Below, in pieces: positions 4,270 through 51,770 of a stretch of 64,000 nt of DNA (positions are counted from its first letter, which is position 1; every line of letters begins with the position of its first letter). The stretch covers positions 988 to 64,987 of the forward strand of contig JAZKIM010000006.1 in NCBI GenBank assembly GCA_040384865.1. Direction: 5' to 3'. The notes below the pieces were generated by a model. That model was not told the origin of the DNA, did not search any database, and was given only the letters and a program-made list of their open reading frames with translations. The stretch comes from Patescibacteria group bacterium. Lineage in GTDB: Bacteria > Patescibacteriota > Minisyncoccia > Phycocordibacterales > CAIZLB01. A program made the translations under genes and the position numbers.

Positions 4270-7200
4270 CTAGGCAGATTCTGCCAAGGCCGAAAAGATC
4301 GTGTTAAGCCTTTGGAACTGGTAGTACAAAATGGTTGTATCCTGAACAATTGGCTCAACCAACTTCTTTATTTTTATTTTCTTTTGCATAAAGTTGTAGA
4401 CTTTCATAGCAGTAGCTAAATTACGTGTAATTCTTACTGTTTCCTTGTAAGCTTTTTCAACACCTCCCTTTTGGATCGTCTTCTGTATTAGATCAAGTTC
4501 ACGAATGTATTTATCTCGTATATGTTTAATTTGAACTTGAGACACTATTACCGCCCTCGCTAAAGTAATTGCGGTGGTTGAATCCAATTCAGAGGATTGC
4601 GAATCTGGAAAAAGCTCTTCATCTTTAAAACCATCGGCGTTGTAATCGATTGTCATAAGACTTGAGGAGGCGGGGATAAATTCAGCTGTCATTCCTTCAA
4701 TCGTTGGCACATTGGAATATTCCATTTTTGATATGACATTATCGCCTTGAAATTCTGTAGCTGTGAATCTAAAAATTCCCGTATCGAGTCCTGTTAGCAC
4801 AATCTTTGCTGGCAACGTTGAAGTGATAATTGTCTTGGCTTCACCGAAATTATCATACTGGCTGTTAGGAATCTCCTGTAATACAAAACCAATTTGATCT
4901 TCAACTGCCTCTTTTACGAGCCCTGTTCGTTTTCCGTCTTGGTCATAGGCCATTATAGCGACAGGTGAATGAACTGAGAATTCATAGCGTTTCCGGGGAT
5001 CATCTGTCATTGACTGCTTACTAACAAAGGGCGGTAATTTTGACAATTCACCACGCAATATTGAAACTATCATTTGTTGAATTACAGGGATACTCATCAT
5101 ATTAGAGTGCTGATAGTTTTGTTTTGTCTCCAGGTTAAGAGCAGAAATATCAACAGCATACACGTCACCGCTTCTAATACTCAGCTCTCCTGCCAACACC
5201 ACTCCGTCGCCATCAGCAGAATAAACCCTTGTACGATCAATTTTAGTTTTGTCTCCTTTCTTTGTATATCGATATGATATTCCTGTTGTCGTATTTCTTC
5301 CCACCCCCACAATATTAGTTACACCCACCAAACCAGATAACGAAGATGATTGAAAAAGTCCATCCATACTCTGATGAAAGTTTTCAGACCTTACCAGCAA
5401 ACCGCTGTTAAGGACGCTCGGCTGATCAATACTTTTAGTATCCACACGATCTCCTTTTGAAGCTACGAGAAAGTTCTCCAACTGAATACGATCGGTAATT
5501 GTATTGCCGTACTTTGAGGCGGGACTCAAGGCAGGATCTGAGTCGGCTGTAAAAGTAATGACAGGAGGGCTTGATGAACCAAAATACTTTTGGGAAGGCA
5601 AAAGAGAATATGCGGCTGACATATTTTTCGACAAATCACGTGCGGTAGATTTGCTAAGAATGAGCCCTCCTAAAATACTCTGGCCGTCACCGTGAAGCAT
5701 GTCTCCAACGGCCTGTGGTGTTCCATATTCAGGTGCTCCAACCATGATCAAACGATCAACCAAACTCCCCTTCCCTTTATCAAAAAGATTTTTAATAAAA
5801 GTCTTGGCTACCAACCCTCCATTACTATGGGTCAGTATGGAAACCTTCCCTGTCTTTGAATTATTTACCAGACTGTTAAACAATATCTCTAGGGAAGTGG
5901 TAGCATTCTTTTCAAGCATTATCTGCCTGTTTGCAACTTCATCAGGGTTACCCCTCCAATCATACGGAGCGGCTGTCCATGCGGCAATCATACTCTGAGA
6001 CACAAGGCTCGCAAGAAAATTGCTTATCCCATCGTACACACCCACATCGAACAATCCCCCAGACAAATTTGTCTTTCTTATAACGTCACGAGTATAAACA
6101 TTCTTTTCTATACTGTTACCATTCGAGTCGAGAAATAGTTTTTTAACATCAGCATTTGTGTTAGGTTCCCACAACTGGTTCTCAGTCCAATTCCTTACAT
6201 AAAGTCTACTCGCTTCAATGCCAGGGATAAACAGGATGCTCGAACAACAGATAATGGCATTAGGTTTTTCTATAAGCCACGGTATAAACACAACATCATC
6301 AGTGACAATTTGCCCTGTTCCTGCTGGATTTGTTTTCTTGTTGTATGGACCATTGGCACTCCCCCACCAATTTTTCGAAGCGGTTACAGGGCCTCCATAA
6401 GCGATCATTCCATAAGATTTATTCTCTTCAATACTACTATTCATTATAGTAGTTGATGAGTTATATGATTCAACACCAATATCATTTCTTTCAAACAAAC
6501 TATTTCTTATATCCACCCCTCCGTTTGAATGCGCTAATAAGCCACTGGCCTTACTGTCAGTGATTGAAACTCCATCAAGGATTACGGATGCACCATTAAA
6601 AACTTCAACTCCTACGGAGGGAGATTGAAGAAACGTCGAGGCAGAAATAGACATACTAGTTTTACCCTGAGAATTCCATCCATCAAAAATACTAATAGCG
6701 GCTTTATATCCAGACTTCTGAAAAGATGTCTGTCTTATGTCTCCATGAGAGTTGTTGTATATATCTAATACGTGAGGAGTGTTAACTCCTGAGAATAAAT
6801 TGTCAGCGAGAGAAATAGTACTACCGCTGTATACGATCATATATGATCTACTCCCTTGTATGTTTTCAAAATGCGAGTGAACTATCTCCACCTTCCCTCC
6901 GATAGACTCAATTATAGGCCCCTCACCTGTTGCGTTAGTGAATTGCATGTATAAATTTCCACCCACAATATTCATGGGCGCTAAAAGTTTCCTAGGATTT
7001 ACGAGCTCAATTGAAATTTGCCTCGAAGATGTGCCTTGAAATTTTAATGTTCCGCTTACTTTAATTTGTCCTCCGTCAAATCGAATCGTTGTTCCCTCTT
7101 CAACAACTATCTCTCTTCCGAGTGGAATATAAATATCTGCCGCTGATACTGTATACGGACCGTTCTCAGCTGTGATATATGAATGCTCGTTAATAAACAA

Positions 7201-7287
7201 CTGAGTTATTTCTGTCTCAGCATAGATAAGACGCGGCAAACTAACGATGAATAAACTAATAAAGAAAACTATGGTCTTTGATTTCAT
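4270..7287 (-). CDS. Large secreted multidomain protein: signal peptide, right-handed beta-helix region and alpha/beta-hydrolase (PGAP1/lipase-like, HSxGG) domain
   Basis: 1005 aa; N-terminal MKSKTIVFFISLFIVSLPRLIYA signal; repeated N-x-S/G beta-helix-like segments; LTHSNGGLVAKTF nucleophile-elbow-like motif. Confidence 0.6.
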   Translation of the reverse strand: MKSKTIVFFISLFIVSLPRLIYAETEITQLFINEHSYITAENGPYTVSAADIYIPLGREIVVEEGTTIRFDGGQIKVSGTLKFQGTSSRQISIELVNPRKLLAPMNIVGGNLYMQFTNATGEGPIIESIGGKVEIVHSHFENIQGSRSYMIVYSGSTISLADNLFSGVNTPHVLDIYNNSHGDIRQTSFQKSGYKAAISIFDGWNSQGKTSMSISASTFLQSPSVGVEVFNGASVILDGVSITDSKASGLLAHSNGGVDIRNSLFERNDIGVESYNSSTTIMNSSIEENKSYGMIAYGGPVTASKNWWGSANGPYNKKTNPAGTGQIVTDDVVFIPWLIEKPNAIICCSSILFIPGIEASRLYVRNWTENQLWEPNTNADVKKLFLDSNGNSIEKNVYTRDVIRKTNLSGGLFDVGVYDGISNFLASLVSQSMIAAWTAAPYDWRGNPDEVANRQIMLEKNATTSLEILFNSLVNNSKTGKVSILTHSNGGLVAKTFIKNLFDKGKGSLVDRLIMVGAPEYGTPQAVGDMLHGDGQSILGGLILSKSTARDLSKNMSAAYSLLPSQKYFGSSSPPVITFTADSDPALSPASKYGNTITDRIQLENFLVASKGDRVDTKSIDQPSVLNSGLLVRSENFHQSMDGLFQSSSLSGLVGVTNIVGVGRNTTTGISYRYTKKGDKTKIDRTRVYSADGDGVVLAGELSIRSGDVYAVDISALNLETKQNYQHSNMMSIPVIQQMIVSILRGELSKLPPFVSKQSMTDDPRKRYEFSVHSPVAIMAYDQDGKRTGLVKEAVEDQIGFVLQEIPNSQYDNFGEAKTIITSTLPAKIVLTGLDTGIFRFTATEFQGDNVISKMEYSNVPTIEGMTAEFIPASSSLMTIDYNADGFKDEELFPDSQSSELDSTTAITLARAVIVSQVQIKHIRDKYIRELDLIQKTIQKGGVEKAYKETVRITRNLATAMKVYNFMQKKIKIKKLVEPIVQDTTILYYQFQRLNTIFSALAESA

Positions 7288-23639: not shown

Positions 23640-25571
23640 TTATTGATTTACTACCTTGTCCTGTCCGTACTTATAAGCTGGATCTGTCTCAATCTGCGCA
23701 TCTAATGACGCCTGAATATTTTCAACTATCGTATCCGTAAAATTATCTTTCCCCGCCACTCGCTGAGAATTCACTATGATAGGTGATTGTCCGAACTGAC
23801 TGATACTTGGCTGGAAAGAAATCTGAAATGCAAATTCTTTGGCACTTGAATTGTATCCCGTACCAGCTCCAATCTCTCCGATCGGCCAAGTGATCTCGCG
23901 TTTGTCGGCATTATAAACAACGCCAGGAGTCACTGGGTCTATAACACCAAGCCATTTTACATACGAAGGCAGAGTTGTGGTAAAAACTCCATCCTTTACT
24001 GTATTAAATGAATTAGAAACACTTACCAATACGGTATAAGTAGAATCCTGATCAACAACTGGAGGCAGTGGACCTGTGTTCACGAAAGGACCAGCGGTGC
24101 GAACTAAACGAGTATTCATGACCAGTCCAGACTGAATCTTTATTCTTCTAATAACAGTTGAGGTAATTTCCTCTGGCACTCTATTTTCATTAAGACGCTT
24201 TGCCCGAATCGTTAGCTCTAGAGAAATTTCAGGACGACGGAATGTCATGTTGTTTTGAATACTTGCAGGTAATGACGCAAAACCAAACTGAATACGACCA
24301 ACCCCTCCAGGGGCAATTTCCTTCAAATCCTTTAAAGTAGTTCTGTCCCACAAAATCGTACTATCAATAGAGCGATAAAAACCTTCATCTCCAGTTACTA
24401 CCCGCTTGTCCAACATGGCACCGGTAATCTTTGCTTCCAAAATTACATCGTTTACCGGCACGTCAAGATTGTTTTGCCAAGTTATTTCGCCACCAATTGC
24501 TTCGCCAGCATCAACAACGACAACATCAGCTCCGTTGCCATTCAAAGAAATATCAGCACCAAGGAATGGTTCACGTACCGCAATACTGGCAGAAGTACTA
24601 ACAAATACGGATTTAATAACGGTTGTATTCTGGGGATCTTCTGTTCCTGCCGAAAAGTTAAATACACGCTCGTCTTTATTCTGCCCGATAATGGTACCGA
24701 CAATAGTAATCTCTCTTCGACCGCCAGGCTCAAGATCGCCAAGTGACCATGTATCAGTTCCTGAAAGAGGATCGGGGGTTGCCTTGAAGTATTTAAAACC
24801 AAAAGGGTAATCAACCTTAAGAAGCAATCCTTTAATGATGGAGGTTGAATTTGATACAAGCGTTACCTTAAATGTAGACACCTGATTTGCAGTCACTTCT
24901 CTGAGCGTATCTACAGTGAGAGTGACAGGAGATGAGCCGATGAAAATTGGATAGTCTTTAGTTTTGGTAAAGATACTATCTGAACCAGGCACACGGTATT
25001 CAAGCGTTACTTTAATATTTTTCTTTACATTTTCTTCACCAAACAAAATTGACTTTACTGTCTTGCGAATGGTTTGACCGGACTTAATCGTACCTACAGG
25101 GACACGATCAGTCACAAGAGAAGTCACCCCATCACCTTCCTCCCGAGTACCTTCGGGATATGTTACAACAAGGTCAGCTAAAATGAGCTCTGAATTATTA
25201 TCATTCCTTATATCAATATCGACAGAGAGCACTTCCCCTGCAGGGCTTGCAACGGGTCCGAGCATTTTTATGTCTATCTTGTCAGGAGAAACTACGTTGG
25301 AGCCATTGTAGAAGATATATGATGAAGCGCTGGCCGCAAGAACAAAAAAAGCGACAGCACCTATAAGTACCTTCTTAAAGCCAGCACCAAAACCTGTATA
25401 TTCATCATCCTTACCATATTCTACTTTTGGAATTTCCTGGTCACCCACCCATGAATTATTAACTACAGGGGCATGAGGATGGAGCCGACCGCGATGCTGT
25501 TTTGGCGGTTCCTCGGTCTGTGAATAGAGTTTTTTCTTAAGTTGCTCGATACGACTGTCGTCTTGTGCCAT
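23640..25571 (-). CDS. Large membrane-anchored extracellular hypothetical protein
   Basis: 643 aa; cytoplasmic N-terminus, single TM (LIGAVAFFVLAASASSYIF), beta-rich ectodomain. Confidence 0.45.
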   Translation of the reverse strand: MAQDDSRIEQLKKKLYSQTEEPPKQHRGRLHPHAPVVNNSWVGDQEIPKVEYGKDDEYTGFGAGFKKVLIGAVAFFVLAASASSYIFYNGSNVVSPDKIDIKMLGPVASPAGEVLSVDIDIRNDNNSELILADLVVTYPEGTREEGDGVTSLVTDRVPVGTIKSGQTIRKTVKSILFGEENVKKNIKVTLEYRVPGSDSIFTKTKDYPIFIGSSPVTLTVDTLREVTANQVSTFKVTLVSNSTSIIKGLLLKVDYPFGFKYFKATPDPLSGTDTWSLGDLEPGGRREITIVGTIIGQNKDERVFNFSAGTEDPQNTTVIKSVFVSTSASIAVREPFLGADISLNGNGADVVVVDAGEAIGGEITWQNNLDVPVNDVILEAKITGAMLDKRVVTGDEGFYRSIDSTILWDRTTLKDLKEIAPGGVGRIQFGFASLPASIQNNMTFRRPEISLELTIRAKRLNENRVPEEITSTVIRRIKIQSGLVMNTRLVRTAGPFVNTGPLPPVVDQDSTYTVLVSVSNSFNTVKDGVFTTTLPSYVKWLGVIDPVTPGVVYNADKREITWPIGEIGAGTGYNSSAKEFAFQISFQPSISQFGQSPIIVNSQRVAGKDNFTDTIVENIQASLDAQIETDPAYKYGQDKVVNQ

Positions 25572-25590
25572 ATAGGGAAATTATAACATA

Positions 25591-26235
25591 CTACAAATGA
25601 CTCTCGCGAACCGCACGCACGAGCTCCTTTCGTGCCTGTTCACTATCACTCTTCATCATTTCTATTAATTCCACACTCCATTCATATTCCACCTTATTAC
25701 CATCATTCATATCCCCTATGTTTTTATTTTTCTGAACAATATATTTATGAAAAGTCTCATCTGCTGCGGCATACCCAAGCACAGCGAGAATTCTTAGCGA
25801 AGCAATCAATTCAACAGCCTCACTCGCCTCTTTAGTCTTCAGCAAATGCCTCTCCGAAAAACAAAAAGAAGCAAGGCTTGAAAGAATAGAGAAAAGATTG
25901 GGGTTTGGAGACTCTCCAACAACCAATCTCTTTACTAATGCCAACACCCTAGCCATCATGATTCGGCCACCAACCGGAATTCGCCGGTCATACAAAGAAA
26001 TAAGCTTACGAGCACTAGTTACTCGCCACAACTCTTTGCCGCGCACTAAAGCAAGCGAAGCGAATGACAGATCTTGAAGTGACGACTTAAGTTTCGAGTG
26101 TTGTACACGCACCGACTGTGCCGCCGCATTCACCAATCCCAAATCAGCCGTAAAGAGAGTGACAAGCCTGTTTGCTTCACCGATGTCTTTGCTATCAATA
26201 ATGAAGCCCTCTGTTTGATAGATATGATATGACAC
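25591..26235 (-). CDS. recO: DNA repair protein RecO
   Basis: 214 aa; N-terminal OB (GEANRLVTLFTADLGLVNAAAQSVR) matches the RecO N-domain. Confidence 0.65.
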   Translation of the reverse strand: MSYHIYQTEGFIIDSKDIGEANRLVTLFTADLGLVNAAAQSVRVQHSKLKSSLQDLSFASLALVRGKELWRVTSARKLISLYDRRIPVGGRIMMARVLALVKRLVVGESPNPNLFSILSSLASFCFSERHLLKTKEASEAVELIASLRILAVLGYAAADETFHKYIVQKNKNIGDMNDGNKVEYEWSVELIEMMKSDSEQARKELVRAVRESHL

Positions 26236-26244
26236 GTGTTTTAC

Positions 26245-28085
26245 TTACCCTTTCTTGACTATATTAAACCTGAGCTTCATTCCATCAATGTCAATTTCTT
26301 GAGCCCCTTCTCCTACTTTTCCATACTCAAAGACAGCAGCCTGTACAGCATAAGCAATCATGTCTCGATAGTTTTCAATTGTTTCCTTACCTACATCATC
26401 AGTTTCAATAGTAAGCACTATATAATCAGACGGAGAAAGTTCCTCTTTCTTTCGTGTCTCTTGTATGGCGCGCATAAATTCACGGACTTGACCCTCAGCC
26501 TTAAGTTCAAGTGTAAGCTCTGTATCAATTTGGACAAGACTTCCCTTCTCAACCTTTTTAACATTCAATTCGTCAGCAATAATTTCAGCTAATTCAACAG
26601 AAAGCGTTGTTGAATCCGCATATGTAAATGTTGCAAGTGGCTGACGAACTTTGATTCCCGCCTTCGAACGAAGCATTAATCCAGTTTCAACAAGCTTGCG
26701 AGCTGAAACCATGGACTCAATGAGAGTTGAATCAATTTCACCCGGTACTGGCCAGTTTTCAAGATGGACGCTTTCAACACCATCCACGCCTTTTACTTTC
26801 TGATACAAATCCTCCGCAATAAACGGCACGAATGGGGCCATCACCTTCGCAAGGGTAACCAATATGTATCGTGTTGTTTCAAGAGCTGCCTGTTTGTCTA
26901 CTTCATCTTCCGCCTTGAATCGGTCTCTAGACCGTCGAAGATACCATGTCGAAAGGTCATCGATAAAATCAGCGATTGGCCGTGAAGCGCGGTCTAGCTG
27001 ATTTGTATCAAGAGAAGTGGTGACTTCCAATATCAAAATGTTAAGTCGAGAAACCATCCATCTGTCTAACACGTGCTTACTCCCCGGCAATACTACCGAA
27101 GACTCCTCTTGAGGCGCATAGGTATTGTAAAATGTAAAGACATTCTCTAGTCGGTTGAAAAGCTTTTTATTTACCTCATCAAGAGCCTTCTCGGTGAAAG
27201 CCACCTCTTCACCACGAACAGCAGGAGAAGAGACAAGGAAATATCGAAGTGCATCAGCCCCATATTTTTCTACTGTAGGCATGAGATCGGGATAGTTCTG
27301 TAAACTCTTAGACATCTTCCGACCATCCTCACCAAGGATGAGACCGTTGACGATGACACTTTTAAATGCAGAACGATCAAAAATAGATTTTGAGAGATTG
27401 AGAAGTGAATAAAACCAACCTCGAGTTTGATCCAGACCTTCAGCTATAAAATCTGCCGGAAAAAGTTTACTATTTGTGGCAAGCATCTCCTCTTTGTTTT
27501 CAAAAGGATAATGATTCTGAGCAAAAGACATAGAACCCGAGTCATACCAAACATCAAATACTTCAGGGATACGGCGCATCGTTTCGTCAATATCATTTTT
27601 CCATGTCACTTCATCGATATATGGACGGTGAAGATCGAGTTCAAAACTTTCATTATGCGGAAGGGGCACAAATTTACATTCATGAACAGAACCTGTCGGA
27701 TCAGAAATATCAGTCCAGCCATGACGAACAAGGTCGCGTAAAGTCACACCATTTGCAATATTTATAGCTAAACGAAGTGGCAATCCATGCGTAACAATGA
27801 GAATGCGTGAGTCCACATGTTTTGCATCGATATCATAGAAAAATTCCCCTACGCGCCTTTTAACATCTTCAACAGATTCACCATCCGGCACCTTCTTGTA
27901 AAGATGTTCACTAATATCCTTAAAATATTCCGTGCGCTGACTCCAACTTCCCCCATCAAAATCTCCCGCATATATTTCCCGAATACGTTTGTCATACACA
28001 ATCTTCGTCTTGTCATAGCCAATAACCTCTGCAACAATTTCAGCGGTTTCTTTAGTTCGAAGAAAATCAGAAGTATAGATGACAA
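26245..28085 (-). CDS. ileS: Isoleucyl-tRNA synthetase, C-terminal part (remnant of histidine-phosphatase-like insert, then WYDSGS, KMSKS and anticodon-binding domain); reading frame is -1 relative to the N-terminal part
   Basis: IYTSDFLRTKETAEI...LIVTHGLPLR (PGM-family motifs) followed by DLHRPYIDEV, VWYDSGS, GRKMSKS; frame open upstream to 28110. Confidence 0.8.
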
Positions 28086-29633
28086 CTGACCGTGGCGCAT
28101 AACGAAAAATTCATTTCCTCGCCCCTCCTTTCGGATCTTTTCCTTTAATTCTTCAACTGAACTGATAAACTCAGTTTTTCCAGATGTTTCCCCCCTCCAC
28201 ACAGGAAGCGGTGATCCCCAATATCGGGATCTAGAAACTGCCCAATCGCGAGCCCCTTCAAGCCATTTACCAAAACGTCCTTCACCAATTTCTTTTGGCG
28301 TCCATGCAATTTTATTATTTTCTTCAACCAACCTATCTTTAAATTCGCTAACCCTTACAAACCATGACGAGGTGGCATAATTAAGAAGCGGCGTATTACA
28401 TCTCCAACAGTGCGGATACGAGTGCGTATACTTTTCTTTTTTAAACAAAGGAGACGGGACTTTCCTGCCAAGATATTTTATCACCTCCACATCCCCCTTC
28501 TGGTGATCATCAATTGGCTTTGCGGCCTGGCCAGCAAAGTCAGTTACAGTGGAAACAAAGAGGCCATCTGGACCAATGTGGTGAATAACAGGAAGACTTT
28601 CTTTTCGAGCAAGCTTCATATCATCTTCGCCGAAGGCAGGAGCAATATGAACAATACCTGTTCCGTCTTCTGCTGTTACAAAATCAGCTGCATAAATTTT
28701 CCAGGCATTAATACGACGCGCTTCAGCATCACCGAGAAGCGTGCCTGGAGTAACATAATATGGAAACACTGAAATGTATGATTTCCCTACAAGAGCCACA
28801 CCCTTCACCTCTTCAAGGATTTCATACCCAGCAGGTACACCTTCTTGTCCAGCAGCACCTACTCCCGCAAAAACTTTTGGTAATAAATTCTTTGCCGCCC
28901 AATATTTAATACCTTCAAATTCCACCCTTGCGTAATCCAAATCAGGATTAACCGCGAGGGCAACATTACCAGGCAATGTCCACGGTGTGGTTGTCCAAGC
29001 TAATACATAGGTTCCAGGTTCATCTATTAATTCAAATTTAACGAAAGCGGAGATATCAGTGATATCTTTATATCCCTGTGCCACTTCAAAGTTTGAAATG
29101 GAAGTCCCACATCGAGGACAATATGGCATGACCTTGTAGTCTTCATATACCAAACCTTTTTTATTGAGCTCGGCAAATGACCACATGACAGATTCCATGT
29201 ATGAAGCATCCATGGTGCGGTAATCATCATCCATATCAACCCATCGGCCAAGACGCGGAATAATTCTTTTCCACTCGTCGGCATATCTAAGAACGCTCTC
29301 CCGAGCTGCACGATTGAATTTCTCCACACCTACCTCTTCGATCTCTTTTTTGTTTTTAAGACCCATTTCCTTTTCGATCAAGTTTTCAATCGGCAATCCA
29401 TGGCAATCCCATCCCCATCGGCGAGGAACATGGAATCCCTGCATAGTTTTATATCGAGGAATGACATCTTTTATAGTAGTCGGCAATACATGTCCGTAAT
29501 GAGGTAAACCTGTTGCATAAGGTGGACCATCGTAGAATACAAAATTACCCTTCGGTGAAGGTTTATTCAAACTTTTCTGAAAAATATCATTTTCTTTCCA
29601 GAAAGCAAGGATTCGGTTTTCTCGTTCGTGCAT
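28086..29633 (-). CDS. ileS: Isoleucyl-tRNA synthetase, N-terminal part (HIGH region, CP1 editing domain, start of inserted RHG phosphatase motif); only junk translation beyond about 28086
   Basis: PPYATGLPHYGH, GWDCHGLPIE, VSRSRYWGSPLPVW, then NEFFVMRHGQ; the annotated ORF continues out of frame to 27849. Confidence 0.8.
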
Positions 29634-29753
29634 ATATATTTAACAGCGGCAAAGAGCCCTCGTTTGTAGCCATTATAGTAGCACCAACCTATATAAAATG
29701 GAAAAGGTCGTCCGGATTGTTACCGGACGACCTCGTAAACAGAATGCTCAAGA

Positions 29754-30086
29754 TCAGACGAGCAGATTGGTGGCATCGTATCGACGATCTACCGGCTGAC
29801 GAGCCCAAATAGGGCTGCCGTTTGGAACGGGCACCTGAACCGGCTCCGGAAAAATGAGCAGCCAGAGGCCTCCAACTTCATCAGACTGGTCGGGCGTGGC
29901 GACAGACTCGGGCACGTAGATATCCTGCTCCGGCGGCAGCTCTTCATCGAGTGGGTTGCTCAACTGGACATTGATTCCAGGCTTCATTTCCGCCCAGGGA
30001 CTCTGATCGAAATCACTCTTCGCCTGAGCCAAGATCGAAAGTGCCGCAAGGGCCAACGTTGCAGACAAAACTTTTTTGAGTTTCAT
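29754..30086 (-). CDS. Small secreted acidic protein in a GC-rich patch
   Basis: Signal peptide MKLKKVLSATLALAALSILAQA; Pro/Glu/Asp-rich; GC visibly above 50%. Confidence 0.35.
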   Translation of the reverse strand: MKLKKVLSATLALAALSILAQAKSDFDQSPWAEMKPGINVQLSNPLDEELPPEQDIYVPESVATPDQSDEVGGLWLLIFPEPVQVPVPNGSPIWARQPVDRRYDATNLLV

Positions 30087-30206
30087 TAGATTCACCTTCC
30101 TCTCTGGTTGCACGCGGTCAAAATGACTGCGCTGTTTTTGTTCTTAAGAGACCTATTCAAATGCTACGCTTGTATATATAAACGGTCAATTGATATGTAT
30201 AAAAGA

Positions 30207-30244
30207 TTCAGCCTCCGGCGCGCAATGTTTGCGCGCCGGAGGCT
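30207..30244 (-). terminator. Strong 16-bp GC palindrome (cagcctccggcgcgca...tgcgcgccggaggctg) terminating the small basic-protein gene
   Basis: Perfect inverted repeat followed by a T-rich stretch on the minus strand. Confidence 0.6.
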
Positions 30245-30275
30245 GTGAATTCTGCGATCCGAGGATCGATTACCG

Positions 30276-30548
30276 TTACTTCACGGTAGTGTGCCGCTGC
30301 CGAACCGTGGGCGAGGGACGAGTTTCGATACCGGGGTCTCTGTGTGGGGACTGACCCCGAGGACCTTTCCGCGTCCGCGCCGAACCGCGCCGCTTCTTAT
30401 GTTTGCGGATCAGGGGGATAAGGCCGCCGCCGAACGCGAGGTTATCAAACCGCCGCTGACTGAACTTCATCTGGACCCCGTTGGCGAGGCGGACAATGAC
30501 GCGTCGGGAACCTTGCTGAATTGGAACTTCACTTTGTTTTCGTGACAT
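30276..30548 (-). CDS. Small basic hypothetical protein (Arg/Lys-rich C-terminus) in a GC-rich patch
   Basis: 90 aa; has its own terminator; faint OB/IF1-like resemblance only. Confidence 0.35.
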   Translation of the reverse strand: MSRKQSEVPIQQGSRRVIVRLANGVQMKFSQRRFDNLAFGGGLIPLIRKHKKRRGSARTRKGPRGQSPHRDPGIETRPSPTVRQRHTTVK

Positions 30549-30639
30549 GACTGCTGTGGACTCTCTGTTTTTGTTTCATTAACACGCTCGAAACCACGTA
30601 CAACCATTTTTGTACAACCTAGCAAGAAATACTATTAGA

Positions 30640-30870
30640 CTTGCATCGACACGTCAAGTTTTTTGTAATAAAAAAGATTCTTAAACGTCTTAGTAATAGG
30701 CTGGAGATAAATCGGAAGACGGTTGCGTCGAGCTTCAATAAAGCCTCAGTTTTACAACGTTTTGCCCTGCAAAACTTTAACCACAAACACTTTATTGACT
30801 CCTCGTCACAACCTTCCCCTTCCACCCACACCAAAGCCGCTCGCATCTGCAGCGGCTTATTTATTTGTAT
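30640..30870 (+). ncRNA. Candidate small non-coding RNA bounded by a sigma70-like promoter and a rho-independent terminator
   Basis: TTGCAT, 17 nt, TGTAAT at about 30643-30671; terminator aagccgct-cgcatctgc-agcggctt plus T-run at 30835-30870; no credible ORF between them. Confidence 0.25.
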
Positions 30871-30883
30871 ATTTTTAGGAGTG

Positions 30884-31807
30884 TTAAACGCTCAACCTTG
30901 CCGTCTGGCCAACGCAATTATTAACACACAAAGTTTTCCCCTCTCTTTCTTGCTCACATAATTCGCAACAAATGAAATGTAAGTGGCATTCATCATTAAT
31001 ACAGTTTACGTAATGCTCGGTGGTGGTTTTACAATAGTCACATTTACCTATAACATCTCTTTCTTTGGTGGTATCCATAGTAATTCGATTATCAAATACA
31101 TATAGCGAGCCGCTAAAATCCTTTCCTGGGAATTTCTGCATATAGGTGGCCATACCCCCATCAAGTTGGTAAACATCCTTGAAACCTTTTTTAATTAAAT
31201 ATCCCGAAGCTTTTTCACAACGCACCCCTCCGGTGCATACTGTTAAAATTTTTTTCTCTTTCAAATGCTCAAAATCTTTAACTACATTTTTTAATTCACG
31301 AAAATTACGCATACCAGCATCAGTTGATCCTTTAAAATGACCTACTTTGTACTCATAGGTGTTGCGCATATCGATGATATGAAAATCCTTGCCAGCTTCC
31401 CCTCTTTCATACCACGTACGAAGTTCTTCAGGTGGAAGATGTACGCCTGTTGTTTCATTCGGATTCACATCTTCATTGCCAAGTTTTGCAGACACGATCT
31501 CGTCACGAACCTTTATAATTAACTTTTGAAATGATCTACCGTTTCCTTCGCTGCGCTTGAAAACTATATCGGAAAAGCTACCAAACTTACATCCGCCGCC
31601 ATCCCCCTGAGAAGTAAGTCGTGTGCAATATTCATCTATTTGTGCGGGTGTACCTTCGAGCGTACCGTTGATTCCTTCTTGGGCAACAAGCACCCGCCCT
31701 TTGAGACTAAGCTTTGCACATAGTGATTTATGCCAAAACATAAAAGCAGTCGGATCAGCAACCGTGGTGTATTTGTAGTATAGGATTATGTCGTATCTCT
31801 CTGCCAT
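30884..31807 (-). CDS. trhO: Rhodanese-domain tRNA U34 hydroxylase TrhO/YceA (UPF0176)
   Basis: 307 aa; rhodanese active site CTGGVRCEKAS; C-terminal Cys-rich tail. Confidence 0.8.
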   Translation of the reverse strand: MAERYDIILYYKYTTVADPTAFMFWHKSLCAKLSLKGRVLVAQEGINGTLEGTPAQIDEYCTRLTSQGDGGGCKFGSFSDIVFKRSEGNGRSFQKLIIKVRDEIVSAKLGNEDVNPNETTGVHLPPEELRTWYERGEAGKDFHIIDMRNTYEYKVGHFKGSTDAGMRNFRELKNVVKDFEHLKEKKILTVCTGGVRCEKASGYLIKKGFKDVYQLDGGMATYMQKFPGKDFSGSLYVFDNRITMDTTKERDVIGKCDYCKTTTEHYVNCINDECHLHFICCELCEQEREGKTLCVNNCVGQTARLSV

Positions 31808-31819
31808 GAATACAATATA

Positions 31820-33637
31820 TTACATTTTTTTCGGAACCTGTATACCAAGAAGCCAGAGGCCTCCGGTAATGACACGTACGAATGCGCTTACCAGCGCAAC
31901 CTTGTATGGTGCGAACTTGTCATCCTTGCTCACAATTTGTGTTGAGCTGTAGAAAGAGTTAAATTCACCAGCTAATTCCATGAGGTAATTGGCAACATGG
32001 TGTGGTGAGTGTTCACTCTCGGCACGGGCCGCAACCTCCGGAAAGCGCACCAATAATCGCTCCAATTTTCCTCCAGGCCATAGCAATGTTCCTGCCTCGA
32101 GTTCTGGTGTCCAATCAATTTCTGTCGATGCCTGAATACCCACCACCCCTGCTTTTTCAAGAAGAGACTTCGCTCGCACGGCTGAGTACTGAAGATATGG
32201 ACCAGAGTCGCCTTCAAACGAAAGTGATTTCTCCGCATCAAAAATGATATCCTTGCCAGACGACTGTCGAAGCACGGCGTATTTTATAGCAGCAACACCA
32301 ACCTGATCGGCAACAACCTTCTTATCATCGCTACTCATTTCTCGATCTTTCATCCTTTCAAGTGCCATCTGTCTCATATCATTGAGTAATGATTCGCCCG
32401 TAACCACTTCACCTGTTCGGGATGACATCTTCCCTGTCGGCAATCGAAGCATGCCATGGGAAACATGTTCAGCCTTTATGCCGATTTCTGGAAACAACAG
32501 TTCAGTTAGTTTCAAAATAACCTTAAAGTAGTCATTCTGTTCATTACCTGACACGGTAATACCTTTATCATATTGATACACCGCATATTTTTCTTTCGCG
32601 AAACCTATTTCCTTTCCATCATATGTCGGTAAACTATCGCGCGTAATAAATACTCGCGTATGAAGAGGAATACCATTTCTGTCCGTATATTCTTCTCCAG
32701 GGAAAATAACAGCACCGTCGCTTTCTCTAAAAAGCTTTAAACCTTTTGGTGCGGTGTTAGCTCGAACTATCTCCAATCCAGGTGTACTCATCTGACTTTC
32801 AAAGAAATATCTGTCGAATTTTGTATCGAGTATTTTATATAACTCTTCAAATTGTTCCAAGCTCCACTCCCTGCCTTTATCATATATTTCATTTACTTCA
32901 GCATCACTTCGGTCATAGATCTTTTTGTTCATCTCACGAACTTCCACTTCCACCGAAGCGAATTCCTCTTTTTCAGACTCAGAAGATTCGGGGGCTTTTG
33001 CAATAGTCTCTAATTTTCCAAACCTTTGTGCACCCTTTGCATACGCCTGACCAAAAAACTCCACCTTATCACCCAAAGATGCATCCTCAACAGGAAACGG
33101 CTTGTCCATAAATCGCAAACCCCACAAAGCAAGTGCTACGTGTCGACCTACGTCTCCTTGATAGCAGAAACGCTTCACTTCGGCACCTGTGTATTCACCA
33201 AGACGACTAAGTGACTCACCAATAGTATTAGCCATGAGATGTCCAATATGGAACTGTTTAAATGGATTAGGGTCGGTATATTCGAAAGCAAACTTCTTAC
33301 CAACGTTCCGTATACTTTTTCCAAAGTTCTCGTTACTCAATATTTCAGCGATACCACCCTTGATAGTATTGGCAGTTTGGTAGAAATTGATGAAACCAGG
33401 ACCAGCCACTTCAATTTTTTCAATACCAGCAATATTTTGCAATTTAAGTGTCTCTACTATCTGAAGAGCAAGGTTGACAGGATTCAACTTAAGTTGCTTT
33501 GTGAGCACAAGCGAAATGTTAGTGGAAAAATCACCATGGAGCATATCCGTTGGACGCTCAATAGTGATCTTTTCTGGAGCCTCAATCTTAAGGCTAATAA
33601 GAGCAATTTTAATACTGGAAATAAGAGCTTCTTGCAT
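31820..33637 (-). CDS. argS: Arginyl-tRNA synthetase
   Basis: 605 aa; HIGH-like HIGHL region; KMSSR variant of KMSKS. Confidence 0.9.
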   Translation of the reverse strand: MQEALISSIKIALISLKIEAPEKITIERPTDMLHGDFSTNISLVLTKQLKLNPVNLALQIVETLKLQNIAGIEKIEVAGPGFINFYQTANTIKGGIAEILSNENFGKSIRNVGKKFAFEYTDPNPFKQFHIGHLMANTIGESLSRLGEYTGAEVKRFCYQGDVGRHVALALWGLRFMDKPFPVEDASLGDKVEFFGQAYAKGAQRFGKLETIAKAPESSESEKEEFASVEVEVREMNKKIYDRSDAEVNEIYDKGREWSLEQFEELYKILDTKFDRYFFESQMSTPGLEIVRANTAPKGLKLFRESDGAVIFPGEEYTDRNGIPLHTRVFITRDSLPTYDGKEIGFAKEKYAVYQYDKGITVSGNEQNDYFKVILKLTELLFPEIGIKAEHVSHGMLRLPTGKMSSRTGEVVTGESLLNDMRQMALERMKDREMSSDDKKVVADQVGVAAIKYAVLRQSSGKDIIFDAEKSLSFEGDSGPYLQYSAVRAKSLLEKAGVVGIQASTEIDWTPELEAGTLLWPGGKLERLLVRFPEVAARAESEHSPHHVANYLMELAGEFNSFYSSTQIVSKDDKFAPYKVALVSAFVRVITGGLWLLGIQVPKKM

Positions 33638-47797: not shown

Positions 47798-49345
47798 CTA
47801 AGAATTTACCTGAGGTTTCTTTGAAGTCTTTCTCTTTGGACGCTTTTTATGTAAATCAATTACCCGATTGAATAGATTTACATATTTTTTAGCAGATGCA
47901 CTCCAAGAAAAATCCTGTGCCATAGCACGTGACTGAATAGCTCGCCATTTCTTATTATCTCTGAAGTTTTCAAAAGCGCGAATTATAGCAATCATCAACG
48001 ATGATGAATCGAATTTTTCAAATACAAAACCTGTTCCTACTCCCTCGTCGGGATTATAATCCTCAACCGAGTCAGCGAGACCACCTACCTTGCGTACAAT
48101 AGGTACAGCTCCAAGTCGCATTGCTTCCATCTGCGTCAATCCGCAGGGTTCATATTTTGAAGGAATAACAACGGCATCTGTTCCTGAAAATACGAGATGA
48201 GGAAGGTCTGAATCAAATTGAAGGTGAATACCAACCTGAGTCGGGTTTGCTGCCTGCAACTCTTGAAAGAAAGTCATCAATTCATGATCTCCCTCTCCTA
48301 CAACGATAAGTTGTATTGGTAATTCCTGAAGCAATGTTTGAATGATAGGCTGAAGGAGATTAATCCCCTTTTGACTCCACAAACGGGAAACTATACTGAT
48401 CACAAATGTTTTTTTATCAATTGGCAAGCCAAATCGCTCCTGCAACGCCTGCTTATTTTTTAAACGCCTCTCCAGTTTTGAGGTTGTAAAATGTTCTGGT
48501 ACAAAAGGATCATTTCGCGGATCCCATAGGTCAATATTAATACCATTCAGAATACCGAACAGCACAGACCTCCTCTCTTTTAAAAGATCTTCAAGCCCTT
48601 CACCAAAATCTTTAGTTAGAATTTCCTTGGAATGATTTTCTGAAACAGTCACTATTGCATCCGAATATATGATGCCGCGTCGCAATGCATTTATTTTTAA
48701 TAATCGATTGCTTTCAAATGACGGAACCTCTGAATGCCCATCATCGTAATCCATCTCCTGCACGAACCGATGATTAAACATTCCCTGGAAAGCAAGATTG
48801 TGGATGGCAAGTAGCGACGCAATATCGGCAATTTCAAGGTCGTTCTTGTATACCGTTTTCATGTAATTAAACATATACCCCATCGGCCAATCCGCACCAA
48901 CGATTATATCTGGCTTCCACTCATCATGAAACTTAAGGAATTCAAGGACACCTCGAGACAACAAAGCCCAGCGCACAGGGTCATCTCCATAGCCGTACAC
49001 ATTAGCGCGCTGTTCGTAATATTCTTGATTCTCAAGAAAATATGTCGTAACCGGATCGACATCTTTCACCGGGGTATATCGTCGCACGTTACAAATAAGA
49101 TTCTTTGGACCCTCCTCATTATCAGTAGGCACCTCTAAATGCTCATGAATGAGTTCAAGCTCATATACATCAGGATCAATATTCAAATATCGTGGGATGA
49201 AGACTCGAGCGTCATGACCAAGTTTCTGAAGAGCCTTGGGTAGTGAGTACATTACTGCAGCAAGACCACCCACCATAGCAAAAGGGGCAGCTTCGCTTCC
49301 TACGAAAAGGATTTTTAATCCTTTCTTTGATCCAAAGAGTTTCAT
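47798..49345 (-). CDS. glgA: Glycogen/starch synthase (GT5, ADP/UDP-glucose type)
   Basis: 515 aa; N-terminal KILFVGSEAAPFAMVGGLA motif. Confidence 0.85.
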   Translation of the reverse strand: MKLFGSKKGLKILFVGSEAAPFAMVGGLAAVMYSLPKALQKLGHDARVFIPRYLNIDPDVYELELIHEHLEVPTDNEEGPKNLICNVRRYTPVKDVDPVTTYFLENQEYYEQRANVYGYGDDPVRWALLSRGVLEFLKFHDEWKPDIIVGADWPMGYMFNYMKTVYKNDLEIADIASLLAIHNLAFQGMFNHRFVQEMDYDDGHSEVPSFESNRLLKINALRRGIIYSDAIVTVSENHSKEILTKDFGEGLEDLLKERRSVLFGILNGINIDLWDPRNDPFVPEHFTTSKLERRLKNKQALQERFGLPIDKKTFVISIVSRLWSQKGINLLQPIIQTLLQELPIQLIVVGEGDHELMTFFQELQAANPTQVGIHLQFDSDLPHLVFSGTDAVVIPSKYEPCGLTQMEAMRLGAVPIVRKVGGLADSVEDYNPDEGVGTGFVFEKFDSSSLMIAIIRAFENFRDNKKWRAIQSRAMAQDFSWSASAKKYVNLFNRVIDLHKKRPKRKTSKKPQVNS

Positions 49346-49367: not shown

Positions 49368-51770
49368 TTACTGTTGATTTGGAAAATAGAGTTTGTTTAT
49401 ATAATCCTTCACCATACGAGTGGCGGTATATCGTTCTTCCGTAAGACCAACAGTACCACGGATACGAGAAATCCAATTTCGCGGGATTCCGGAAGCGTCG
49501 CGCTCATAGAATATCGGTACTATTTTATTTTCGATCGTGTCATATATATCTGTAGAAATATGTTCATCATCAAGTATCCAACCTAAACCACTCCAGTCTA
49601 CTTCCCCCACCCAACCGTCTTTAGTGCTGCACTGAAGAGCTCCATTAAGTGCTGCCTTCATCCCACTAGTGCCACAAGCTTCGAAGCCGGGAATGGGGGT
49701 ATTAAGCCAAACATCAGCACCAAGCACCAACTCTTTTGCCACGTTAATTGAATACTCCGGAACATAGACGATCTTACCCAAAAACTCTGGCCGTGATACA
49801 TATTCTTTTATCCGTGCCACTGTTGCTTGCCCCTCTTTATCGTCCTTATGCGCCTTGCCGGAAATAATGAAATGTACCGGCCCGTCGGCTTTTTCAACAA
49901 TTTGAGCAAGTCGTCCTAAGTCACTAAATAACATTTCTGGACGTTTATATGAAGCAAACCGTCGAGCCCAGACAATGATAAGGGTGTTGGGGTTTAGTTT
50001 TACTCCTGTTTGCGAGTCAATGTAAGCAACCAAATTTGTGCGCAAAGTCATTCTTGTCTTCCACAGCTCATAATCATCAATGTCCTCAAGAGATAGTGTT
50101 GGCCACCCCGGGGTTCTCCATCGTGGTAAGTAGACCCCATTGGTAATAGGGATTAATAAGCTATGTGGATGAACCTTCTTTTCAAACTCAACATGGAGAG
50201 CGCTCACTCCATTCGCCCGCGACGCGCTACCAAGCATGAATTTAGTGGTTGAAAACATTTCTGGATTTTCCTGTCGGGCCCCAAGTAGAAAGAATTCTTC
50301 AAAATCAATTCGATGGCGGTTGAAATAATGTTTAACAATTCCACGCAGACGATCTCTTGAAAAGTTTATTCCCGCAACAGATAGGATGGTGTGTTTCGAC
50401 GCAACAATGTGCTGCTTCATCATCTGAACAGCCGCGCGAAGACTCATTTCTGGATGATCATGAATATACTCAGCAAATAGTGCCAGCGCTACAAAACTAG
50501 TATGACCCTCGTTGAGATGATATACCGTTGGATGAATATCTAATGTGCGAAGCAACTTTACTCCACCTATACCGAGTAAGAGCTGCTGTAAAATGTTAAT
50601 GCTAATATCCGACCCATATAAAGAAGATAGAATCCTCTGAATGTCACCGCTGTTTTTTTCAGTATCAGTATCAAGAAGATACAAACGCGAGCTTCCATGA
50701 ATTCGTTGCCATACTTGCAGACAAATCGTACTGTCCGCCACATCAACATTAACAATCATTGGCTCACCGTTTGCCAAACGTAGTAATCGAAAGTTGTGAT
50801 TTATAAGACTAATACGGTTCTCCGAGCGAAGCTCTTCCGAAGATGCTTCTGTACGTTGGTTATAAAAAAGACCTATGGCAGAAAACGGTATGCCTTGATC
50901 CCCTACTTCTCGAACAAAGTCTTCAGCAAGCATACCAAGCCCTCCGGCATAGAGGGGTAAACCTTGAATACCGTACTCTGCACAAAAAAATGCTACGGAC
51001 TTTTTTGATAATATCTTTTTTATAATTTCAGCGGTGTCCTGCGGACCTGCAATTTTCACTGATTCAATTCCTACCTGTGATGGTGAATAATCATTACCGC
51101 CCGGAAACACAGCGTCACCGACGAATAACATGTCCGAAACCTTTAACTCATAACGATCCAAAAGGCGTTTCAACCCCGTTGCCTTATTAAAACCTTTGGA
51201 AAGAAAGTCTATAGATGTTGTACCTCCAATAACAATCTCTATATCCGGTAAAAGAGGCTCAAGTTCAGCTTTAATAGCTAAGCGTTTTTTTTGATCAGAA
51301 TCCCACATCTCTTTTACCTCAATCGGCGCCTTTTGGCCATAAGCCGAAAAGGTTATCTGTGATCCTCTATCCTCGATGTAGTCTCCAAAAATTTGATGCT
51401 CGGGTGGAATATCATACCGATGAGAAGCAATGAGATCTTTTAGTGCAACGATAGTTTTTCTCTTAAGATCTTCTCTGAAGAGCTGCTCGTCCACTAGCTG
51501 CCACTCACCTATTTCAGCTTCATATTCATAACACTGACTACCGTCTACCGGCAACATAACAAGATCATTGACCGGGCCCTTCCAAAATGGCAAAAATTGT
51601 TTTTTAAATTGTTCAAAAGAGCCTCCTGAAATGACGACTACCTTTGCACGCGTCGCTAGTTGTGCCAGCAATTCAGCCATCTCTAATCCAAGAGACTGTT
51701 TGCTCTCAGCAAGAGTACCGTCAAGATCGAAAGCGATAATCTTTTTTACCTCTTGGGAAGAATCAATCAT
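49368..51770 (-). CDS. Fusion protein: N-terminal HAD-IIB phosphomannomutase-like domain plus C-terminal alpha-glucan (glycogen) phosphorylase, GT35
   Basis: 800 aa; N-terminal AFDLDGTLAESKQ and GDAVFPGGNDYSP (PMM/HAD motifs); C-terminal EACGTSGMKAALNGA PLP-lysine motif of GT35. Confidence 0.8.
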   Translation of the reverse strand: MIDSSQEVKKIIAFDLDGTLAESKQSLGLEMAELLAQLATRAKVVVISGGSFEQFKKQFLPFWKGPVNDLVMLPVDGSQCYEYEAEIGEWQLVDEQLFREDLKRKTIVALKDLIASHRYDIPPEHQIFGDYIEDRGSQITFSAYGQKAPIEVKEMWDSDQKKRLAIKAELEPLLPDIEIVIGGTTSIDFLSKGFNKATGLKRLLDRYELKVSDMLFVGDAVFPGGNDYSPSQVGIESVKIAGPQDTAEIIKKILSKKSVAFFCAEYGIQGLPLYAGGLGMLAEDFVREVGDQGIPFSAIGLFYNQRTEASSEELRSENRISLINHNFRLLRLANGEPMIVNVDVADSTICLQVWQRIHGSSRLYLLDTDTEKNSGDIQRILSSLYGSDISINILQQLLLGIGGVKLLRTLDIHPTVYHLNEGHTSFVALALFAEYIHDHPEMSLRAAVQMMKQHIVASKHTILSVAGINFSRDRLRGIVKHYFNRHRIDFEEFFLLGARQENPEMFSTTKFMLGSASRANGVSALHVEFEKKVHPHSLLIPITNGVYLPRWRTPGWPTLSLEDIDDYELWKTRMTLRTNLVAYIDSQTGVKLNPNTLIIVWARRFASYKRPEMLFSDLGRLAQIVEKADGPVHFIISGKAHKDDKEGQATVARIKEYVSRPEFLGKIVYVPEYSINVAKELVLGADVWLNTPIPGFEACGTSGMKAALNGALQCSTKDGWVGEVDWSGLGWILDDEHISTDIYDTIENKIVPIFYERDASGIPRNWISRIRGTVGLTEERYTATRMVKDYINKLYFPNQQ

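Follow-up and report, generated by a model that had tools for sequence, protein, structure and literature searches.

A histidine-phosphatase domain within the isoleucyl-tRNA synthetase of Paceibacteria, and a 130-nt gap in that domain in one Patescibacteria ileS gene

An ileS gene divided between two reading frames

The stretch of DNA analyzed here, referred to as the window, comprises 64,000 nt of contig JAZKIM010000006.1 from a Patescibacteria group bacterium (assembly GCA_040384865.1), and all positions are counted from its first nucleotide. Sequence and profile matches identify two open reading frames (ORFs) on the minus strand, 29633..27849 and 28110/27999..26245, as a single type-2 isoleucyl-tRNA synthetase (IleRS) gene, ileS, as had been proposed in an earlier reading of the sequence (hereafter the original prediction). 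ORF1 (29633..27849, 594 aa) contains PPYATGLPHYGH, GWDCHGLPIE and the CP1 region, and matches positions 9-508 of the NCBIfam ileS model TIGR00392 with 566.3 bits; the ORF2 frame matches positions 509-853 with 314.1 bits. Each ORF alone falls below the 621.4-bit cut-off of the model; together they are contiguous over it and cover it without loss. Both class-I signature motifs are found, PHYGH (HIGH-type) in ORF1 and KMSKS in ORF2. The type-2 affinity is indicated by a DUF5915 match at the C-terminus and by MupA and MupB as the next-best NCBIfam matches.

In its native frame the N-terminal part of the gene occupies 28086..29633 of the minus strand (PF00133, E=1.5e-90; TIGR00392 9-508) and consists of the first Rossmann half (PPYATGLPHYGH), the CP1 editing domain and the WGSPLPVW motif, followed at 28115..28086 by NEFFVMRHGQ, the first 10 residues of a histidine-phosphatase insert. 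The domain order in the ORF2 frame is His_Phos_1, the second half of tRNA-synt_1, Anticodon_1, and DUF5915. The remaining two-thirds of His_Phos_1, with IYTSDFLRTKETAEI ... GES ... LIVTHG, lies at 27718..28083, the second half of the IleRS catalytic domain with DLHRPYID, VWYDSGS and KMSKS at 27205..27636 (PF00133, E=1.8e-41, profile positions 276-412 of 414), the anticodon-binding domain at 26632..27066 (PF08264, E=1.6e-29), and the DUF5915 C-terminal domain typical of type-2 IleRS, with the stop codon, at 26245..26538 (PF19302, E=1e-16), all on the minus strand.

According to both Pfam and NCBIfam, the His_Phos_1 module falls exactly between ileS model positions 508 and 509. Its PF00300 match in the ORF2 frame scores 79.4 bits against a gathering cut-off of 21.7 (E=3.6e-22) and spans profile positions 47-170 of 194 only. 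The Pfam search thus bears out the original prediction that a histidine-phosphatase domain of the PGM family replaces the short linker of type-2 enzymes. Catalytic residues still encoded in the window copy are RHG (28097..28089), the Arg of LRTKET, the Glu of GES and the His of THG. With type-2 bacterial IleRS (TIGR00392, MupA/MupB-type) the window gene shares the HIGH-type motif, KMSKS, the CP1 editing domain, Anticodon_1 and DUF5915; it belongs to a group that differs in having, between positions 508 and 509, a phosphatase domain of ~190-200 aa where ordinary enzymes have a linker of ~10 residues.

The phosphatase insert is widespread among Paceibacteria-type IleRS proteins

GTDB species-representative genomes were scanned for relatives of the insert, 600 pattern matches were listed, and 80 loci were fetched. 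Among the 600 matches listed, at least 259 genome loci encode such a relative. The 80 fetched species-level loci include 79 with ileS as one intact ORF of 1000-1340 aa containing the insert (~1100-1340 aa on contigs that span the entire gene), and across these 79 loci ~230 residues separate YWG.P.PVW from ELDLHRPYID, with the RHG lying ~40 residues past the first motif. The remaining locus, L050 (CAZDWR010000005.1, 4360-8022), was considered as a second case of a lesion and rejected: its ileS lies in at least six ORF fragments from end to end, either because the metagenome-assembled genome is of poor quality or because the gene has truly decayed, and has nothing to do with the one clean lesion of the window.

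A search with the reconstructed window protein found PF00300 in all of the best 120 full-length homologs (1140-1357 aa), and a search with the junction region recovered about two dozen IleRS fragments from Patescibacteria/Paceibacterota with both PF00133 and PF00300. An intact RH[G/S/A]...LTxxG...SxxxRTxETA segment is present in those aligned fragments that include this part. The homolog search returned only proteins of query-like length (queries of 294, 93 and 1129 aa gave proteins of up to 512, 86-95 and 1140-1357 aa, respectively), so that fragment queries miss full-length relatives and vice versa.

The RHG triplet, the Ser and Arg of SxxxR, the Glu, the further Arg and the second catalytic His are each kept in 79 of 79 intact loci, and the Asn of RHGxxxxN in 78 of 79. 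An AlphaFold2 model of an intact relative (P0002) has a predicted local distance difference test score above 90 across the insert, and the top structural matches of that insert are branch-1 histidine phosphatases: PspA (4ij5/4ij6), HFP (9mmh), PhoE (1h2e) and CobC. Foldseek target-normalized TM-scores are 0.69-0.77 overall and 0.70-0.75 for the named PspA, PhoE and HFP chains. A sequence profile search of the insert gave the same branch-1 phosphatase picture with E-values of 1e-27 to 1e-20. The insert shares its fold, RHG His, two Arg, Glu and second His with PspA (4ij5), PhoE/YhfR (1h2e, 1ebb), HFP (9mmh) and CobC (6nru, 6e4b), but these are free-standing enzymes of ~200 aa with known small-molecule substrates, whereas the domain here is embedded in an aminoacyl-tRNA synthetase (aaRS). 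No specific function can be assigned to it because it scores far below every NCBIfam phosphatase equivalog cut-off.

A complete, PspA/PhoE-like His_Phos_1 domain of ~190-200 aa appears from these alignments to be the standard architecture of Paceibacteria-type IleRS. The insertion site is a surface loop that follows the WG.P.PVW strand and precedes the DLHRPYID motif. The conservation pattern points to a complete phosphatase domain held under strong purifying selection in this lineage, and the question raised with the original prediction, whether the insert is lineage-wide and intact elsewhere, is answered in the affirmative by 79 of the 80 fetched loci and by all of the best 120 homologs. Judging by the invariant catalytic residues and the modeled fold, the embedded domain is probably an active phosphomonoesterase. 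In most Paceibacteria IleRS proteins, the insert is flanked by the cysteines of a CxxC ... CxC zinc knuckle (PVWxCxxC ... IDExxxxCxCG); all four have been lost in the window (28185-28210, 27590-27640), in the relatives P0123-P0127, and in locus L001.

Full-text topic searches turned up no paper describing an IleRS that contains a histidine-phosphatase domain; one candidate paper containing both "isoleucyl-tRNA synthetase" and "Parcubacteria" was set aside as being on an unrelated subject. NCBIfam has no model for the architecture, and in public databases the proteins go by "class I tRNA ligase family protein", "histidine phosphatase family protein, partial" and similar labels, with automatic Pfam matches. 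The IleRS-His_Phos architecture therefore appears to be undescribed, though the proteins themselves are numerous in public databases. The original prediction had called it an undescribed architecture; this holds insofar as no describing paper was found, but not for an oddity of one gene, since hundreds of public genomes encode it. The NCBIfam family NF040702 (ileS_w_GNAT) provides a precedent for an IleRS with an extra enzyme domain, in that case an N-acetyltransferase; its added domain has the GNAT fold and not that of His_Phos, and the window protein is a non-member, scoring 96-236 bits against a cut-off of 1999.

To our knowledge, extra catalytic domains are rare in bacterial aaRSs. The point of interest is a histidine-phosphatase domain with invariant catalytic residues within an essential aaRS across hundreds of ultrasmall species of the candidate phyla radiation. 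The position of the insert beside the aminoacylation site raises the ideas that it could act on adenosine monophosphate or other nucleotides, on a phosphorylated tRNA 3' end, or on a phosphorylated metabolite or inhibitor.

The window ileS lacks 130 nt between the first two strands of the insert

The window ileS is not a single uninterrupted coding sequence. Frame 1 ends with ...GNEFFVMRHGQ (GRGNEFFVMRHGQ) at base 28086, and frame 2, which is -1 relative to it, starts with VVIYTSDFLRTKETAEI... at the same base. The junction reads CACGGTCA|GTTGTCATC, and the G at 28086 is shared, being the last base of CAG (Gln) in the upstream frame and the first base of GTT (Val) in the downstream frame. The relatives P0123-P0125 have RHGQ, then 43 residues, then VVIY, for example ATSNLENKISSKDLNESGLTELGKEEVRKTAEDMKARLGPLEQ in P0123, whereas the window has RHGQ|VVIY. 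The window DNA is moreover one base short of an in-frame junction, with CAG GTT reduced to CAGTT. What is missing relative to the nearest relatives is consequently 43 codons plus 1 nt, or 130 nt, between RHGQ and VVIY, and the comparison with these relatives, like the start of an independently assembled contig described below, places the deletion junction (CA|G) at 28086..28087 of the minus strand. The -1 shift near 28086 and the TGA at 28111-28113 reported in the original prediction are both seen in the sequence. It was also right that residues following the RHG are absent, although their number is 43 relative to the closest relatives and not the roughly 30 first estimated.

The 43 absent residues include the conserved Asn of the RHGxxxN loop and the LTxxG motif; structurally, the deleted segment corresponds to the loop and first helix between beta1 (FFVMRHGQ) and beta2 (VVIYTSD). 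The complete alpha/beta core of PF00300 found in the relatives is thus not present in the window copy, and because the Asn loop of the phosphate pocket and the first helix are lost, the phosphatase domain of the deleted allele would not be expected to fold normally.

The two frames end and begin as follows on the minus strand. Past the junction, ORF1 continues for 79 out-of-frame codons (27849..28085, the +1 frame of the native gene) to a TAG at 27851-27849, and this tail has no homology to IleRS. The ORF2 frame is closed upstream of the junction by the TGA at 28111..28113, is open from 28110 to 26245, and has its first start codon, a GTG, at 27999.

Synteny and sequence constraint around the lesion

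The closest relatives of the reconstructed window protein are P0123, P0124, P0125 and P0126, with 79, 78, 74 and 72% identity, respectively, each encoded by a single ORF of 1168-1186 aa. Around P0123 and P0124 the gene order is as in the window: SHMT, dUTPase, (GARS), ArgRS, rhodanese, small variable ORFs, ileS and recO, with a protein of ~645 aa after recO, and both relatives have one intact ileS at the syntenic spot. More broadly, the Paceibacteria IleRS-His_Phos proteins P0123, P0124 and P0126 and the one encoded at locus L001 (JAGOSK010000001.1) are orthologs with 62-79% identity that share with the window the insertion point, the domain and the gene neighborhood; they differ in being intact ORFs of 1168-1256 aa, whereas the window copy is without the 130 nt. 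Because the gene order matches that of relatives with an intact ileS at this position, the window locus appears to be the orthologous, primary ileS and not a spare copy. No second ileS is found within the 64-kb window.

At every still-present column that is conserved at 90% or more, the window keeps the consensus residue. We also counted changes specific to the window at sites that are invariant in five relatives, and found 10 of 325 in the N-terminal half, 4 of 60 in the phosphatase remnant and 9 of 239 in the C-terminal half; the intact relatives have 8-11, 5-10 and 4-12 in the same regions. There is no relaxed constraint or decay in the rest of the gene. The original description of the insert as decaying does not survive these comparisons: the domain is complete in the lineage with its catalytic set kept in 79 of 79 loci, and substitutions in the window are not elevated. 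Since neither half has other lesions or an excess of substitutions, any inactivation must be extremely recent.

An independent assembly breaks at the junction base

Logan contigs of sequencing run SRR26324625 are 100% identical to the window, which places the same organism in this public run, and two neighboring window proteins are recorded on them. One of these contigs (L081) corresponds to window positions 32385..29983 and another (L082) to 28086..25014, so that L082 starts on the junction base 28086, the G of GTTGTCATC. The other Logan break, at 29983, falls inside a 110-aa ORF. The start of a de Bruijn-graph contig marks the merging of two upstream paths or a dead end, and with about one contig end per 2 kb, we estimate the chance of one falling within 1 nt of a pre-specified base by coincidence at ~0.002. 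A break exactly at 28086 suggests that the assembly graph branches there or that the junction is misjoined. The most economical interpretation is that at least two different sequences precede base 28086 in the reads, one being the deletion junction and the other, most plausibly, the undeleted gene; alternatively, the junction is itself a misjoin of two contig ends.

Repeat-mediated collapse of the assembly was ruled out: neither flank of the junction recurs in the window, no repeat extends across it, and a collapse repeat of at least k-mer length would need conserved residues to be encoded in two frames. The other large window genes, including ArgRS, MetRS, FtsK, SHMT and GARS, have normal full-length Pfam matches as single ORFs, and the assembly is therefore not generally error-ridden. 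An exact look-up of ORF1, ORF2, the 643-aa neighbor and the 110-aa upstream ORF found no identical record, and a scan of JGI metagenomes with window-specific peptides found no close relative.

The gap is probably a recent deletion allele or an assembly junction

We consider it probable that the 130-nt gap in this lineage-typical IleRS-phosphatase gene is a very recent deletion allele, a chimeric junction or a misjoin, and does not represent the organism's fixed, functional state. A Paceibacteria-class ileS normally encodes an IleRS with a complete, catalytically conserved phosphatase insert; the absence of 130 nt puts beta1 directly next to beta2 and moves the frame by -1, and the gene as written would produce a 594-aa N-terminal fragment, leaving the KMSKS/anticodon half without a translation start of its own. 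A deletion allele or chimeric junction would coexist in the sample with an undeleted allele and would have been picked by the assembler, or else the junction would be a plain misjoin. A recent allele or an artifact is the most likely origin of the lesion, given the normal constraint on all other parts of the gene and the break of a separately built assembly at this base. A sequencing or assembly indel was rightly among the options listed in the original prediction. The frameshift in the window is probably not a biological feature; it is better treated as a flag for assembly checking and as a reason for care before ileS is called a pseudogene here.

Several observations weigh against this explanation. 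The intact allele is one that we infer to be in the sample and has not itself been seen: the Logan contig upstream of the junction was not found in a look-up by a guessed partial product of the 110-aa ORF, and a search with a chimeric 93-aa query recovered no fragment with the missing 43 codons, only two unrelated phosphatase fragments of 44-47% identity. Loss of coverage could also have ended the contig there. An assembler that crosses the junction implies some supporting reads, so that some of the population, if not all of it, may truly carry the deletion. Finally, the frame used by the ORF1 tail is open for at least 79 codons past the same point in only 2 of 78 relatives (median 8), which makes such a tail mildly unexpected for a random lesion; it is probably due to chance.

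An unlikely alternative is that the window holds a real, fixed pseudogene, ileS having been lost through the 130-nt deletion, with a second ileS elsewhere in the genome or supply of the enzyme by a host or partner. The deletion is present in the assembly, its flanks are confirmed at 100% identity by the independent assembly, and Patescibacteria are symbionts with reduced genomes, all of which count in its favor. However, the absence of further lesions would require the inactivation to be extremely recent, the relatives have a single ileS at the syntenic spot, the 64-kb window has no second ileS, and the break in the Logan assembly suggests more than one path in the reads. We know of no case of a bacterium importing an aaRS, which also counts against a pseudogene.

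Slightly less probable still is a true in-frame loss of 129 nt, giving RHGQ-VVIY and a crippled phosphatase, combined with a 1-nt error that turned G-G into G at CAG|GTT. Locus L083 has CAG at both boundaries of the corresponding segment (GGA CAG GCT ... GAG CAG GTG), and slippage between these short CAG repeats would give an in-frame RHGQ-VVIY differing from the window by one G. Nevertheless, the large genes of the window show no other single-base frameshifts, and the contig break at the junction would be unexplained, since an assembler would be expected to pop a bubble of 1 nt. Selection against losing the helix is in addition likely, because all 79 intact relatives retain the full domain with invariant catalytic residues.

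We regard as very improbable a fixed deletion after which the essential IleRS is made as two polypeptides around a phosphatase stump or through an unrecognized recoding event; if true, a naturally split IleRS would have been observed at the moment of its origin. There is a known parallel in the alpha/beta LeuRS of Aquifex aeolicus, whose catalytic body is made as two polypeptides, divided at an insertion that precedes the KMSKS half, and in known split class-I synthetases the division is conserved and both pieces carry start signals of their own. In the window, by comparison with the Aquifex enzyme, the relatives are unsplit and ORF2 is without a start signal: the GTG at 27999 has no Shine-Dalgarno sequence, neither a start codon nor a Shine-Dalgarno sequence lies near the junction or the ORF1 stop, and no promoter or terminator was found on the minus strand internal to ileS. 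Programmed frameshifting finds no more encouragement in the sequence. No slippery heptamer of the form X XXY YYZ occurs in GAA TTT TTC GTT ATG CGC CAC GGT CAG TTG, which covers the junction and the bases before it, and the predicted RNA fold of 28115..27990 is no better than that of shuffled sequences (z=-0.92). The -1 shift is not conserved, the relatives reading as one ORF, and the split is absent from 79 of the 80 fetched loci and from the best 120 homologs. Translational recoding, which the original prediction had listed as an option, has no supporting signal. Least probable of all is a functional split with halves made apart and reassembling, or a programmed -1 shift yielding one polypeptide: the break sits in a surface loop and inserted domain where it could in principle be tolerated and the ORF1 tail is unusually long, but signals for separate or recoded translation are lacking and no relative is split at this site, the sole broken relative, L050, being fragmented throughout.

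Neighboring features and other proteins of the window

Between the rhodanese gene and ileS lie two small, higher-G+C ORFs on the minus strand (window 29700-30550). The first encodes 90 aa (30548..30276) and is followed by a strong hairpin terminator at 30245-30209; the second, a signal-peptide ORF of 110/119 aa (30086/30113..29754), is followed by a hairpin terminator at ~29745-29705. The stretch looks like a variable islet, since the small ORFs found at this position in loci L083 and L084 are different ones. An Rfam scan of the ORF-poor stretch upstream of ileS gave nothing credible.

Two further genes on the minus strand of the window were noted. At 49368-51770, adjoining a starch-synthase-type glycosyltransferase gene (47798-49345), is the gene for an 800-aa protein with an N-terminal HAD/phosphomannomutase-like hydrolase domain and a glycogen phosphorylase-like C-terminal part. 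A 1005-aa protein encoded at 4270-7287 contains a right-handed beta-helix region together with a domain resembling LCAT (lecithin:cholesterol acyltransferase family), and is possibly a secreted lipase or acyltransferase of an episymbiont.

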